A DNA stretch of 7,414 bases from a virus (IMGVR_UViG_2713896831_000005:1-7414); one strand, 5' to 3'; positions 1 to 7,414 are shown, numbered from the stretch's first letter. Notes: a model not told the origin generated them from the sequence alone. Numbers and translations are program-made.

Positions 1-912
1 ATGATAACCAACATCACCACAGCAAAATGGTTTTTTCCAGCCTTTGATGCAGGTTTAATGTTAGTATTTTCATCCGCAGTCACGCTCTATTGCATCAATA
101 GGATCAGCAAGAAATTCCCAGATACTAACGAATTACTACCATTTTTTGGTTTAATCGTTTGGGTCTTGTTGATCGTCGGCTACTATGTCGTTCGCTACAA
201 CAATAACTATCAGACTTCATTATCAATAATCGTAGCCGGTTCGATAGCAGGTATGGGATGGTGGATACAGTTCATCACTTCAGCCGCAAGCGATCGCAGA
301 AAGCATACCCTCAATGTAGTGCTAAGCACCAGAACATGTACTGAATATCAAACAAATCTGCGTAACTTTACTCATCTGTGGAGAGGCAATCGTCACATAC
401 CCAAAGAACTTTGTGAATGGAGAGACGATCCAGATAACCCTAAATTTCAAAACGCAAATGTTCCAAAAGAGGTCGTGGACGGCATAAACGGGATGCTATA
501 TATCCTCAACTTCTTCGAGTTTTTGGCACAAGGTATCAAAGCAAATGACCTTGATGATAAATTACTCCGCGAATGCTTTTGTGGTTTTTTGGAAGGATTA
601 GAAAGACGAGCATATTTCATTTTGTCAGAGGCACAAAAGAAGGATGAGCGTTTTTTTGAAGGTATTGTTTTCTTATGCAAGCGTTGGAACAATGATAAGT
701 CAATCATAGAAAAGCATCGTCATTCAGCCCCTCCGGTTGATATAGGGATAAGCTATCCTCCTAAAGATGAAGTGATGGAAATGTTAGGAATGACCTCACA
801 CGACCATCAGTCTCGCAAACGTAGACGTAGAAAAACAAAAAAAGTTACAACTACTCAACCTGCAGCCAACACGAGCCCTCTGAATTCATCTCAAATAGCC
901 TCATCAGGATAA
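1..912 (+). CDS. Hypothetical membrane-anchored protein (303 aa) with three predicted N-terminal transmembrane helices, a soluble domain of about 200 aa and a poly-basic C-terminal tail; function unknown
   Basis: Uninterrupted 303-codon ORF from the first base of the window to a TAA stop at 910..912. Hydrophobic segments in the translation (FFPAFDAGLMLVFSSAVTLYCI, LLPFFGLIVWVLLIVGYYVV, SLSIIVAGSIAGMGWWIQFITSA) look like three transmembrane helices, and the C-terminus is strongly basic (SRKRRRRKTKKVTT). The region is visibly AT-rich compared with the tail genes. The ATG sits at the window edge, so the true start and its ribosome-binding site cannot be checked. No family was recognised from memory. 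Confidence 0.55.
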   Translation: MITNITTAKWFFPAFDAGLMLVFSSAVTLYCINRISKKFPDTNELLPFFGLIVWVLLIVGYYVVRYNNNYQTSLSIIVAGSIAGMGWWIQFITSAASDRRKHTLNVVLSTRTCTEYQTNLRNFTHLWRGNRHIPKELCEWRDDPDNPKFQNANVPKEVVDGINGMLYILNFFEFLAQGIKANDLDDKLLRECFCGFLEGLERRAYFILSEAQKKDERFFEGIVFLCKRWNNDKSIIEKHRHSAPPVDIGISYPPKDEVMEMLGMTSHDHQSRKRRRRKTKKVTTTQPAANTSPLNSSQIASSG

Positions 913-963: not shown

Positions 964-1228
964 AATCCTTAGGCTTTCAGCTGAGTTCGGTATAGCTTGA
1001 TCCTGAATTCCCCATCTATCGCGCATATCAGCAGCGAGCAATCACAGGCTGAAAGCGACACGTCCACAACAAGTAGCGCCCCCTAGATTATCCCTTCCCT
1101 GAAATGTGAACGCGCAGCGCGCATGAAGTAAGTCGCTGATGGCTGGCTGATAAGCTGCTGATCGAGGGAAATCCTTTTTTCAACATAATCAGCCGCAGGT
1201 GAAGGAAAGCCCATGTTTACGCCCTCTC

Positions 1229-1257
1229 TTGAATACCGGATAAAAACACAGCATAAG
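1229..1257 (+). promoter_or_regulatory. Putative sigma70 promoter for the DinI-like gene
   Basis: TTGAAT at 1229..1234 as a -35 element, a 17-bp spacer, then CATAAG at 1252..1257 as a -10 element (4 of 6 matches to TATAAT), immediately upstream of the LexA-box-like site. Assigned by eye only. Confidence 0.3.
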
Positions 1258-1277
1258 TACTGCATATCCATCCAGTA
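1258..1277 (+). promoter_or_regulatory. Candidate LexA (SOS) operator upstream of the DinI-like gene
   Basis: TACTGCATATCCATCCAGTA has the CTG-N10-CAG core of the E. coli LexA box (consensus TACTGTATATATATACAGTA), with 15 of 20 positions matching. It sits just downstream of the putative -10 and ends right where the ribosome-binding site begins, the usual position for an SOS operator. Confidence 0.5.
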
Positions 1278-1292
1278 AAGGAGCAATGAGCA

Positions 1293-1535
1293 ATGTTCGT
1301 GGAACTCGTTTATGACAAAAGGAATTTTGATGGCCTGCCCGGTGCAAAAGATATCATTCTGGGCGAATTTACCAAGAGGGTTCACCGGATTTTCCCCGAT
1401 GCTGAGGTCCGGGTTAAACCGATGATGATTCTGCCAGCAATCAACACTGACGCGAGCAAACATGAGAAAGAACAGATAAGTCGTACTGTTCAGGAAATGT
1501 TTGAAGAGGCTGATATGTGGCTGGTTGAAAGTTAA
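1293..1535 (+). CDS. dinI: DinI-family protein (DNA-damage-inducible protein I-like, 80 aa)
   Basis: 80-aa ORF with AAGGAG at 1278..1283, 9 nt before the ATG. The translation has the DinI-family size and conserved blocks (central FPD motif and a C-terminal KHEKEQISRTVQEMFEEADMWLVES resembling the KEDKQRISEILQETWESADDWFV region of E. coli DinI, as recalled from memory). The LexA-box-like site upstream fits an SOS-regulated dinI paralogue, which lambdoid prophages commonly carry. Confidence 0.85.
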   Translation: MFVELVYDKRNFDGLPGAKDIILGEFTKRVHRIFPDAEVRVKPMMILPAINTDASKHEKEQISRTVQEMFEEADMWLVES

Positions 1536-2767: not shown

Positions 2768-3352
2768 TTACATTGTGTCTGGTTCTTCCGGCCACTCAAT
2801 ATCAGGTGCAGTTGATGTATCAACACGGTTCAGCAACACCCGATACTTTTTCCAGGCTTCCAGCAATGAGTTTTCTTCCTCCGTTGCGATTTCCAGATCT
2901 ACAGCATCCTGAAGTGGCGCAATATGCTCACTGGCTACCTGCATCAGGTTGTTTTTTGTTTCTTCCGCCTCCCGGATCCGGAACAGTTTTTCTGCTTCCG
3001 TATCCTTCAACCAGGCTGTGCCGTTCCACTTCTGATATTCCCCTTCCGGCGATAACCAGGTAACATTTTCCGGTAACGGACCGAGTTCAGAAATAAATAA
3101 CGCGTCGCCGGAAGCCACGTCATAAACCGTTTTACCCCGATGATCTTCAACGAGATGCCACGATGACTCATCACTGTTGAAAACAGCCACGAAGCCAGCC
3201 GGAATATCTGGCGGTGCAATATCGGTACTGTTTGCAGGCAGACCTGTATGAGGTGGAATATATGCGTCACCGTCACCAATAAATTCATTAGTTCCGGCCA
3301 GCAGATTATAAATTTTTATGGTCCGTGGTTGTTCACTCATTCTGAATGCCAT
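2768..3352 (-). CDS. tfa: Tail fibre assembly protein Tfa (194 aa), lambda Tfa-like chaperone
   Basis: 194-aa minus-strand ORF. The translation ([62 protein letters not shown]...) is near-identical over most of its length to phage lambda Tfa as I recall it. Its start overlaps the stf stop (TAATG on the minus strand at 3350..3354), the expected stf-tfa arrangement. Confidence 0.95.
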
Positions 3353-6300
3353 TATGCAAGCCTCACAATATAGTTAAATGCGATGTTTTTGACGGTGTTT
3401 TCCGCGTTACCAGCAGCGTTAACGGTGATGGTGTGTCCATGTGAACCAATCGCAACGGAGTGCGTATGAGCACCAATACCGACAGTATGCGCGTGTGCAC
3501 CTGCAGATGCTGCTGTGCCGGACAGTGAATGGCTATGATTACCATCTGTACTGGTATTCGCTAACCACCCCGTAGACATACCTACTGAGCCTTGTACACC
3601 CCAGGTATTTTGACCTGAGCTTGTATAACCATATTGATAAGTATCTTTAAAAACACTGGGGTTAAATCGACGGCCATCTCTATGGCTGTGATTACCAGCT
3701 GCATTCGTGCTGCCACTTAAACTATGGGTATGCGCACCAGTGTTATTCGTGGATTTAGTGCCGTAATCAAACGACGATGTGGTTTTCGTCCCCAAATCCG
3801 TACTGGATGCGCTGGCGCTGTGGGTATGCGATTTAATGCCATCCTGTTCCTGAGACAATACGGCACGACCACTGGCGGGCTTGCCCTTAATCGTCCAGCC
3901 ACGCAAATCAGGGATCACGCCTGACGGATAAGCGGCAGCAAGTTTCGGGTAGGCAGATTTGTCAAAAGTCTGCCCCTGCATCAGGGCATAACCAAACGGA
4001 ACGGTATCTGATGGCCACGGGATTGGTGCGCCGACTGGGTAGCTTTCTGGTGGAAGATTTTTCGAGGTATAAACTTCTGCCCAGTCTTCCTCAAAACCAT
4101 AACCGTCTCTTGAAGAACGGTAGAACAGACCACCATTTCTGTAATGCGCCTTCATCTGCAAGGTCCGGCAACTTCCGACTCCGGTATAGAAGTTAACCAG
4201 AATATAGCTGTCGCCAGAGCGGGTGACATTATAAGCGCCTGATTCGGCATTCCAGGGAACGCCACCATCCGCATCGGCATATGTATCCGTTGCCCTTCTG
4301 GCAAAAGCAGCCACATGCGCGGCGGTTAAAGTAATATCTCTGGAACCATCAAACTCAACACCAGAAACCCGTCTTGGCGTTTGCAGCTTTGTTGCTGTTA
4401 ATGCATTACCGTTCAGACTTGCGGACAGTTTGGTTCCAATAACCAGTTCGCCGGTTGCGTTATCAATAGCAAACGGTCTTAATGTATTCCAGCCACCATA
4501 AACATCACCTTGATTGGTAAGCAGCAGGTAAGTTTTAGCGCCATCATTACGCCATAATGCCCCATACTCCCCACCTATCATTCGAATCTGATTACCACCA
4601 CGCGCTACAATTTCGTCTGTGGCAAAAAGTTTTTTGCACGACAAGTTATCGTTAACGATTAACGAATGAGACTCATAAAAACCACGCCCACTCTTAAAAT
4701 CAAGGATAACGTCCGCCGCGATACATTCAGTCGCCGGATTTGTTGCCCCAAACTTATAGGTCGTATCATTAACAACGAGATCAGCACCAGGTGCGGATAT
4801 TGACAGGCCATCTTCGATAAACGCAAAAACAGGGAAAGCAGCGCCATCAACATAGAACACAGAGCGCAAATCATCGCCCTTATTACTCATCATTATTGAG
4901 TGGATGGCTCGTTCATTGTTTTGATATTGCCAGAACATTCCATAAGCATAACGCCCCCTGTCAGTCCAGCCACCAGGCATAACAAATCCGTTAAACTCGC
5001 AGTTATTCATCGGATCGCCTGCGGTTCGCGTTGCCGTGGTGATAATGACCCTTGATGCCAGTTCGCTTACTGAGCCAGCAGAACGCATAACAACAACAGG
5101 GTAATATTTTCCAGATGTTGCACCTGCAGGAGCGTTAACCCGCACATAACGCATACCACGCTTATCAGCAAAGTCTGTTTTACTGACCGCGTTAATGTTG
5201 TTCAGGAAGCGTCCCTTATCGGGTATATCAGCGCCGTTCTGGTCTTTCTGCAGACGTTTCTCTGCATTGTCATAGGCTGATTTTACTGCCTTTGGCGTTG
5301 CCGCCAGCGTTTCAGACGTACTGTTGGTCGCACTGCTGAGCTGTACTATCCCCTTTTTCGTCGTACTTGCATCCTCAAGCGCCACGGCGGATGCAATATC
5401 CTCTGCCCGTTTTGCCGCTGTCTCGGCGCGCGTTGCCGCGGATTCCGCCGTACTTTTGCTCTGTGCTGCCGCCGTCGCACTGCCAGCTGCCTCTGTCGCC
5501 TTCGTGGATGCTGTCGTGGCGCTGCCCTTCGCTGCGGACGCTTGTCTGGTCGCCTCATCTTTTGAAGCAGACGCCGATGATGCCGATGACGCCGCCGAAC
5601 TGGCGGACGATGCGGCAGCCGTTTTTGAGGATTCTGCGCTGGTTTCCGACGCTTTCGCGTTCGTCTCGGATGTCTTCGCTGCGGAAGCAGACCTCGCTGC
5701 TGCGCTGGCCTGTTCAGTGGCTTCGCCAGCCTTCGTTGTGGCTGTTGAAGCAGACGATGCGGCACTTTCTGCCGATTTTCCGGCGGCGGTGGCACTGGCT
5801 GAGGCCTGCCCGGCACTTGTTGACGCGGCACTGGCAGACGACGCAGCCGCTGTTTTTGAGCCTGCCGCAGCCGAGGCGCTCTGTCCCGCTGCCGTTTCAG
5901 AAGACCTGGCGTTTGTCTCAGACGTCTTTGCCGCCTTCGCGGAATTGCCTGCCGCCGTTGCCGAGGAAGCGGCACTACTGGCGCTTGATGATGCGTTCGT
6001 TTCTGATGATTTCGCTGCCTCTTTTGAGGCCGCCGCATCCCGTGCTGAGGTGGCTGCTTCTGACGCCTTCGTGGTCGCGGCGGATGCAGAAGTGGCTGCT
6101 GATTGTTGTGACGCTGCCGCATTCGTTTCTGACGTTTTCGCCGCAGCGGCACTGGTAGCTGCCGCGCTTTTTGAGGACTCTGCAGCAGCAGCACTTTTCG
6201 ATGCTTCACTGGCCTTTGTTGATGCCGTTCCTGCGCTGGAAGATGCTGACTGAGCCGACGACGCGGCCTGTCCGGCTGACGTGCTGGCTGCGCGTGCTGA

Positions 6301-6750
6301 GCCTGCAGCATCAGTCGCATGGGTTGCCGCCTCACGGGCTGATGTGCCGGCATCGCTGGCTGACTTCTTCGCGGCTGCCGTGTTCTGTGCCACCGCGGAC
6401 GCGTTACGCGCCACCTCTTCCACCATCAGTTCAAAACGGCGCAGTGCCTCAGGACGGGCATCATCCTCCGTCATGGCACCGAGAAAATCATTCAGCGTAC
6501 CGGGTCGGGAATCTTCATACACGGTGATGGTCCCGGCATGTGACGGCGGGAATCCCTCCACCAACAGAATAACGCTGTACTGACCGTACTCAACGTCCAT
6601 GCTGTAACGCCCGGCTTCATCCGGATTTTCTGAGGCCAGCGTGTTCACCACCACCGTGGTGCTGTTACGTTTTGCTTTCAGCTGGATTGTGCAGTTCTGT
6701 ACCGGTTTTCCTGTGCCGTCTTTCAGTACACCTGAAATCTTTACTGCCAT
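3352..6750 (-). CDS. stf: Side tail fibre protein Stf (about 1132 aa), full length, with a histidine-rich HxH-repeat C-terminal receptor-binding tip
   Basis: Long minus-strand ORF. The N-terminus ([60 protein letters not shown]...) matches lambda Stf as recalled. The ORF track starts at 6756 (MNM...), but the ATG at 6750 has GGGG 5 nt upstream and gives the canonical MAVKISG start, so 6750 is preferred. The middle is a long Ala/Ser/Thr-rich low-complexity shaft. The C-terminus carries multiple HxH motifs ([45 protein letters not shown]) and ends [11 protein letters not shown], as in lambda/T4 gp37-type fibre tips. Confidence 0.9.
5407..6408 (-). repeat. Internal low-complexity quasi-repeat region of stf (Ala/Ser/Thr-rich shaft with recurring KTSETNA-type units)
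   Basis: Stf residues about 117..450 are almost only A, S, T, K, E, Q and G, with recurring units such as [41 protein letters not shown] and [18 protein letters not shown]. The underlying DNA is GC-rich and stop-poor in every frame, which explains the long overlapping spurious ORFs at 5324..6353. Boundaries are approximate. Confidence 0.5.
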
Positions 6751-6760
6751 ATTCACCCCA

Positions 6761-6814: not shown

Positions 6815-7414
6815 TCAGAATTTATAACCGATACCCACGATGAAACCGTCAGTGCGCCAGTCACCACTGCCGGAGCCTTCATAAGCAATATCAATGGCCA
6901 CGGATTCGGTCGGGTTAAACTGCACGCCAGCCCCCCACGCCAGAGACGTGTTGCTGTGGCGACCGTCATCACTTCCGGTCAGCACATCGTGCTTTTTCCC
7001 CTTGTTGTCAGTTACGCGAAGATAATCCCCGGAGAAAGTCGACACACGGCTGTAAGCTACACCCGCCATCGCATACGCGCTGAACCATTCATTCACGCGC
7101 ACAGACGGCCCCGCCATTACGCTGAACCAGCGGTTACGAACGGAATCTTCATGCCAGCGGGTATCGCTGTAACGGGTCAGCTGGCGATTCTTGTCTCCTG
7201 CATAGCTGAATGACGTCACCAGCCCCAGTGTGTCCGTAAACTCATAACGGTATTTCACGTTAATCCCGTTCAGATCATCGCTGCCGGGGACGTTCGTCGA
7301 GGCATGAAGATACCCCGCGCTCAGCGTGGACTGATGTTCAGACGCCCATGCAGGCGCACCGGATACGGCCAGACAAATGGCTGCGGACAAAATTGCTGCA
7401 CAAACTTTACGCAT
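6815..7414 (-). CDS. lom: Lom outer-membrane protein (Ail/Lom/OmpX family beta-barrel, 199 aa)
   Basis: Minus-strand ORF with a signal-peptide-like N-terminus (MRKVCAAILSAAICLAVSGAPAWA). Conserved blocks match lambda Lom as recalled (GINVKYRYE, VMAGP, SAYAMAGVA, and the C-terminal DIAYEGSGSGDWRTDGFIVGIGYKF ending in aromatic F). The start codon is at the last bases of the window, so the promoter and ribosome-binding site are not visible. Confidence 0.95.
   Translation of the reverse strand: MRKVCAAILSAAICLAVSGAPAWASEHQSTLSAGYLHASTNVPGSDDLNGINVKYRYEFTDTLGLVTSFSYAGDKNRQLTRYSDTRWHEDSVRNRWFSVMAGPSVRVNEWFSAYAMAGVAYSRVSTFSGDYLRVTDNKGKKHDVLTGSDDGRHSNTSLAWGAGVQFNPTESVAIDIAYEGSGSGDWRTDGFIVGIGYKF

Follow-up and report, generated by a model that had tools for sequence, protein, structure and literature searches.

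LexA-controlled dinI paralogues of prophages have been documented since the work on phiKO2, 186 and Gifsy, and one more of them has little meaning beyond annotation; tools such as PSOSP use boxes of this type for calling prophages SOS-dependent. The dinI-like gene of phage phiKO2 has been reported to be regulated by LexA, and in phage OS31 dinI-like genes with LexA boxes adjoin the tail genes (PMC7556043). [quoted passage not shown] Their LexA-controlled operon has the order dinI-antirepressor-irsA, and prophage induction was not significantly altered when dinI was removed by non-polar deletion (PMC3121763). Tum of phage 186, which is likewise controlled by LexA, represents an antirepressor-DinI fusion of 146 aa, and a split version of tum is present in PSP3 and Fels-2 (PMC3121763).

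The intact arrangement of humD, LexA box and dinI is found in phage phiKO2, phage HK140 and Escherichia coli Nissle 1917. Comparison with these cassettes identifies the region 1229-1535 of the DNA studied here as the dinI half of a putative divergent SOS cassette ("humD <- LexA box -> dinI") whose humD half is dead. This kind of humD-dinI LexA cassette is already known, and the present locus is one more, degraded member of it.

Setting of the cassette in the prophage

The window, i.e. the whole stretch of 7,414 nucleotides that was analysed (IMGVR_UViG_2713896831_000005:1-7414), is the right arm of a lambdoid prophage, and its DNA is 100% identical in 16 of 5426 complete E. coli genomes. The prophage adjoins prfC in E. 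coli and has Lom, Stf, Tfa and J alongside, which bears out the prophage setting proposed in the earlier note. The minus strand carries an Ail/Lom gene (6815-7414), the gene of a side tail fibre of 1134 aa (3352-6756) and a tail-fibre assembly gene (2768-3352), followed by a group of cargo genes on the plus strand. Between 5324 and 6353 the tail-fibre gene contains a long Ala/Ser/Thr-rich stretch of low complexity, which creates spurious ORFs (>300 aa) on the opposite strand as well as in further frames, along with sub-threshold isrG matches in Rfam. A strong Rfam match to IS009 (RF02111; 226 bits, gathering score 117) is located at 2811-3009 on the minus strand, where it falls within the 3' half of the gene for tail-fibre assembly; the Rfam search of 900-2700 yielded no match. 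The cargo includes the gene of a DUF4760 protein of 303 aa (1-912, plus strand). The protein has a basic tail (RKRRRRKTKK) and, in its N-terminal part, hydrophobic segments, and its PHROG matches are all of unknown function. The DUF4760 gene has taken the place of the 3' part of humD.

Genes 22 (DinI-like) and 23 (UmuD'-like) of phiKO2 share 67% nucleotide identity with the window over 89% of the range 984-1560, and in both loci humD and dinI are on opposite strands and a single LexA box adjoins the putative -10 of dinI on its downstream side. The position beside tail genes or the att end is common to the window, phiKO2, HK140 (gp26/gp28) and the E. coli Nissle prophage. The window differs from these three cassettes in its humD pseudogene and in a -10 that reads CATAAG instead of TATAAA, and it is flanked by other cargo, namely the DUF4760 gene and a Panacea pair. 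At the homologous site, the GenBank record of phiKO2 has entries for a "lexA binding site" and for a pair of divergent promoters. In this record (AY374448, 1712-1861 of our locus L002) the annotated -35, -10 and lexA site lie 18 nt away from the matching sequence motifs, and for the -35 of gene 23 there seems to be an additional shift of 100 nt.

The DinI-family protein and its LexA box

The earlier note had described an 80-aa DinI-family ORF preceded by a LexA-box-like 20-mer, and its coordinates and description match the sequence as read (ORF 1293-1535, 20-mer 1258-1277). The gene extends on the plus strand from the ATG at 1293 to the TAA ending at 1535 (stop included), and its predicted product is a member of the DinI family at the family level. 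The HMM search was well above threshold for Pfam DinI (PF06183; 72.1 bits with a gathering threshold of 24.2; E 4.9e-20; match to positions 3-63 of the 63-position profile), PHROG 189 ("RecA filament binding protein DinI") was matched with an E of 6.5e-21, and a phmmer comparison with DinI in the PDB (1GHH/7YWA, E 1e-6) aligned residues 15-79 including the acidic C-terminal helix. RefSeq labels the ORF as "DinI family protein" (WP_024172627.1).

Chromosomal DinI of E. coli (1GHH; RecA-filament complex 7YWA) resembles the window protein in Pfam family and length, and both genes are located behind a LexA box. The acidic C-terminal helix is common to the two proteins (KEQISRTVQEMFEEADMWLVE versus KQRISEILQETWESADDWFVS), and the acidic positions are kept in the C-terminal segment EKEQISRTVQEMFEEADMWLVE of the window protein. 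The latter nevertheless scores with 38.4 bits below the cutoff of 111 of the NCBIfam equivalog for chromosomal DinI (NF007893); it is therefore a phage paralogue, and an identity with the housekeeping dinI is excluded. In other E. coli genomes (matches H76-H82) a related DinI-family gene adjoins a DUF4113 gene (UmuC C-terminal domain), an adjacency that represents another linkage between DinI and translesion polymerases.

Within PHROG 189 the window protein aligns solely to positions 71-150 of the 151-position profile, i.e. to its second half. This partial alignment, together with the Gifsy operons and the Tum fusion of phage 186, would fit a locus in which dinI heads an operon with a small antirepressor and the box controls prophage induction directly. 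The likeness to Gifsy comprises a prophage dinI paralogue with a LexA box few nt before the ATG, and that to 186, PSP3 and Fels-2 a DinI-like module under LexA control. However, the window has neither the antirepressor (gfoA/gftA) nor the irsA gene that follow dinI in the Gifsy operons, and no suitable Gifsy-like antirepressor ORF was found in 1536-1795; a 25-aa TTG ORF overlapping the end of dinI is the only plus-strand ORF of at least 20 aa there. The next genes encode a Panacea antitoxin and a membrane protein. The 80-aa protein represents the DinI module alone, without the N-terminal antirepressor domain of Tum, and its gene lies by the tail-fibre/att end, as in phiKO2, HK140 and OS31, unlike the Gifsy operons, which are situated after the replication genes. 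A direct control of prophage induction by this box is accordingly regarded as highly improbable, and the locus is treated in the following as the dinI half of a humD-dinI cassette.

The predicted LexA (SOS) box TACTGCATATCCATCCAGTA at 1258-1277 is regarded as the operator common to two divergent promoters, those of dinI and humD. Its CTG-N10-CAG core is located at 1260-1275, and the 20-mer abuts the inferred dinI -10, ends 15 nt before the ATG and adjoins the Shine-Dalgarno sequence. Scored with the Lewis matrix, the box has a heterology index (HI) of 8.00. This matrix was recovered by regression on 363 published sequence/HI pairs, which comprise all candidate boxes of E. coli K-12 (PSOSP Table S1, PMC12527982), with a maximal error of 5e-5. 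Among the tested E. coli sites all 19 with an HI of 12.6 or less bind LexA, and none of the five with an HI of 15.5 or more does so; the Mean-Shift threshold of PSOSP is 13.2. With an HI of 8.0 versus binding thresholds of 12.6-13.2 the 20-mer passes the matrix check that the earlier note had proposed as a possible refutation, as the protein does for the proposed HMM check, and proven LexA sites are found close to this value (lexA box 2, 8.3; uvrD, 8.8). What the note had called the gene's "own LexA-box-like operator" is hence confirmed as a conserved LexA box upstream of dinI, but the box is not its own, because it is common to the divergent humD. The HI of 8.0 compares with 2.8 in phiKO2, 4.95 in E. 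coli Nissle, 6.0 in HK140 and 3.9-5.3 in the Gifsy boxes. A second DinI-like gene of 82 aa, which is nearer to chromosomal DinI, is located on the same prophage arm 783 nt past the left end of the window (L001 9859-10168), where it adjoins prfC; it has two tandem upstream LexA boxes, CACTGTTTATTCATACAGTT (HI 6.2) and TACTGTATACAAACACAGTG (HI 7.5).

A search for the LexA consensus with up to three mismatches did not find TACTGCATATCCATCCAGTA, because the box has four mismatches to the perfect consensus. Its half-sites are CTGC and CTGG, neither of them CTGT. The CTGG half-site is present in proven boxes such as ruvAB, and CTGC occurs in none of the proven boxes examined. Reversion of 1263 from C to T would alone lower the HI to 3.89, so that this base costs 4.11 HI units, a penalty that represents the pseudocount ceiling, since C never occurs at position 6 in the Lewis training set. 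LexA reads the CTGT motif through direct base contacts (PMC4139847), and the true loss of affinity may thus exceed the one implied by an HI of 8.0.

Conservation and erosion of the humD-dinI cassette

A scan with one genome per species retrieved 80 loci whose DinI proteins are 71-96% identical, from genera that include Citrobacter, Kluyvera, Klebsiella, Enterobacter, Raoultella and Salmonella. In 77 of the 78 usable loci from other enterobacterial species a LexA box (HI 1.4-10.5) is present within 200 nt upstream of dinI. The boxes fall into two positional classes, located either 11-17 nt (29 loci, as in the window) or 32-56 nt from the ATG. The sole exception, Citrobacter youngae ATCC 29220 (L011 2960-2985), has this box too, though with a CAG-to-CAA mutation, an independent decay of the cassette. 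The 15.4 kb of DNA upstream of dinI contain 101 boxes and the remaining 449 kb only 11, which corresponds to an approximately 270-fold higher density. The presence in 77 of 78 loci and the enrichment upstream of dinI show that the box belongs to this gene family as a conserved regulatory element. The box at 1258-1277 is positionally homologous to the LexA boxes of the dinI homologues in other species. The control regions of 12 related cassettes can be aligned with it column by column from the -35 via the 17-nt spacer, the -10, the box and the Shine-Dalgarno sequence to the ATG.

These comparative data rule out that the box is a chance palindrome in AT-rich intergenic DNA without regulatory meaning, a reading whose probability we consider negligible. 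The bare CTG-N10-CAG skeleton is not significantly enriched (five copies in the window against an expectation of 1.75; five were also reached in 6 of 200 shuffles), and this would be in line with chance. The other four copies have, however, HI values of 17.6-27.2, whereas a full 20-mer with an HI of 8.0 or less is expected about 0.001 times per window, 3e-5 times per 200 nt and about 0.8 times per 5 Mb; both the column-by-column alignment and the density in the homologous loci argue in the same direction.

The dinI promoter was assigned by homology with phiKO2. Its putative -35 TTGAAT (1229-1234), with whose first base the region given in the earlier note starts, is kept as TTGAA(T/A) in the 12 related cassettes and aligns with TTGACA of the phiKO2 gene 22 promoter. 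After a spacer of 17 nt follows the -10-like hexamer CATAAG (1252-1257), degraded from TATAAA. The box starts directly after this -10 and so would cover the transcription start site. A Shine-Dalgarno sequence AAGGAG is located at 1278-1283, 9 nt before the ATG. The inferred humD promoter on the minus strand (1250-1279) consists of a -35 TTTACT (1279-1274) and a -10 TATGCT (1255-1250; TATACT in the relatives), and its 18-nt spacer holds the LexA box. After correction of the 18-nt offset its hexamers correspond to the -10 and -35 of phiKO2 gene 23. A strict sigma-70 scan of 1000-2000 predicted no promoter, a negative result that is uninformative, because the TATAAA of the relatives also fails the rule (T at position 6).

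The humD half of the cassette is a pseudogene for a UmuD'-like S24 peptidase (975-1214, minus strand), as documented by tblastn, NCBIfam and RefSeq. It begins with an ATG at 1214-1212, is interrupted by an in-frame TAG at 1083-1085, and its homology stops near residue 80 of about 127; the last approximately 45 codons are gone where the DUF4760 gene begins. Gp23 of phiKO2 matches with 65% identity over residues 1-80 (tblastn, E 4e-32), the NCBIfam HumD equivalog NF051876 scores 130.5 bits versus a cutoff of 120 with the in-frame stop read through, and RefSeq lists the remnant as a pseudogene with an internal stop. The humD start lies 43 nt from the box, a geometry like that of L004, L007, L030 and L040, and 27 of the 80 genome loci share with the window a divergent humD. 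The remnant is about 71% identical at the nucleotide level to humD of P1, P7 and D6; it is truncated and has a nonsense codon in comparison with P1, whose matching stretch is annotated as humD only. HumD of phage P1 is reportedly a functional UmuD' homologue, a finding credited to McLenigan et al. 1999 (as listed in PMC4713147). As the operator belongs to a two-gene humD-dinI cassette, an annotation of dinI alone misses half of the module.

The window copy is the weakest of its kind. Three core positions that do not vary among the 12 aligned relatives are changed in the window alone, and all three changes are transitions. Two of them, T to C at 1252 and A to G at 1257, convert the -10 from TATAAA (12/12 relatives) to CATAAG, and the former also changes the humD -10 from TATACT to TATGCT. 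The third, T to C at 1263, converts the left half-site from CTGT to CTGC (box position 6). The window-specific nucleotide changes in the coding sequence are all nonsynonymous (3/3; L26F, T46I), and dinI is frameshifted in one of the 16 sister genomes (E. coli Z1323PEC0010, L086 614-855). Together with the dead humD these changes suggest a relaxed constraint, and the comparison argues that the cassette is eroding in this E. coli lineage. An independent decay is seen in E. coli XDL (L085 3077-3304), which has a truncated DinI of 75 aa and no humD.

The serious alternative is that the locus is a relic, in which the operator, the promoter or both are dead, dinI is silent or weakly constitutive and the gene lies outside the SOS regulon of its host. 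The three lineage-specific transitions at the invariant -10 and CTGT-core positions fit this explanation, as do the distribution of 154 homologous half-sites (119 CTGT, 32 CTGG, 3 CTGA and no CTGC), the humD pseudogene, the exclusively nonsynonymous coding changes, the frameshifted sister copy, the similar decay in C. youngae and strain XDL, and the negative sigma-70 scan. The scan is, however, failed by relatives with TATAAA too, the HI of 8.0 is within the range of proven LexA sites, and the ORF, the Shine-Dalgarno sequence and the -35 are intact and identical in 15 of the 16 genomes. We therefore judge a complete relic to be unlikely. Given the dead humD and the transitions in the -10 and the CTGT core, the locus is most likely still LexA-responsive with a weaker promoter and operator than its relatives, and dinI is probably still responsive to SOS, but weakened in comparison with them.

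The reading that we regard as probable is that of the dinI half of a LexA-controlled humD-dinI cassette, which is repressed until SOS and likely still responds to LexA, if more weakly. Lambdoid and N15-like temperate enterobacterial phages carry this cassette beside their tail-fibre genes and the att end. A single LexA dimer at 1258-1277 would cover the start site immediately behind the putative -10 of dinI and at the same time occupy the spacer of the humD promoter, thereby repressing both promoters. Upon DNA damage, RecA* would trigger the self-cleavage of LexA, the promoter would open, and the 80-aa DinI paralogue would be made. By analogy with DinI of E. coli, this protein may bind RecA filaments via its acidic C-terminal helix, and its presumed physiological role would be a modulation of the co-protease activity of RecA, chiefly affecting UmuD processing and filament stability. 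In the ancestral cassette, dinI would have been co-expressed with a pre-processed UmuD' analogue. The earlier note had also suggested that the gene could tune prophage induction; Gifsy is the one system in which such a role was examined, and there the dinI deletions left induction without significant change. The lineage represents a natural allelic series (CTGT to CTGC plus the two -10 changes), which could be used to measure the cost of a C at position 6 to LexA binding, a value that the standard HI guesses by pseudocount.

The Panacea pair and possibly SOS-linked cargo

Downstream of dinI, the plus strand encodes a SocA/Panacea-domain antitoxin of 156 aa (1796-2266; Pfam PF13274, E 2e-20) and a 128-aa membrane protein with C-terminal hydrophobic segments (2266-2652; phrog_33656), for which no Pfam match was obtained. 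The stop codon of the antitoxin gene overlaps the start of the membrane protein gene, and 1796-2652 is likely a PanA-type toxin-antitoxin pair. PADLOC found no defence-system match for the DUF4760 protein, the Panacea protein or the membrane protein.

Homologous pairs in viral contigs of IMG/VR (L087-L121) have a LexA box within 200 nt upstream in 32 of 35 cases. These boxes comprise 20 distinct sequences with HI values of 4.5-12, whereas the other 170 kb hold four boxes; the Panacea-pair family therefore looks SOS-regulated. No link between Panacea modules and LexA was found in the literature searched. Neither the window copy nor its three closest relatives have a LexA box upstream of the pair. 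At 1759-1778 the window retains a relic left half-site ATCTG-N10-ACA (ATCTGAAAGAAAACCACACA), which still has its left CTG but no longer the right CAG, and the relatives L090, L116 and L121 have a LexA box at this place. This comparison indicates that the Panacea pair of the window has lost its own LexA box. A conserved GGTTACC-N5-GGTAAA(A/C)T element is located just upstream of 1759-1778 (region 1730-1795).

Between dinI and the Panacea gene lie 260 nt of AT-rich DNA, in which a perfect 10-nt direct repeat ACAACTACAT occurs at 1565-1574 and 1597-1606, 32 nt apart, and a 9-nt inverted repeat ATTTTTTAC/GTAAAAAAT is found at 1634-1642 and 1669-1677. A terminator scan of 1000-2000 made no prediction, and none is accordingly placed between dinI and the Panacea pair; RNA folding of 1525-1700 likewise revealed no terminator-like or unusually stable structure (z 0.08). 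With no terminator predicted behind dinI, transcripts that start at its promoter could conceivably run on into the Panacea pair. That the LexA-controlled dinI promoter also supplies the SOS input to 1796-2652 is nonetheless quite doubtful. If true, dinI, panA and the toxin gene would form a composite DNA-damage-inducible unit via read-through from P-dinI. In a wider sense this would then speak for a family of Panacea toxin-antitoxin modules in prophages that is under SOS control and as yet undescribed.

[quoted passage not shown] This stacking hints that SOS-timed expression of cargo genes may be a recurrent design here.
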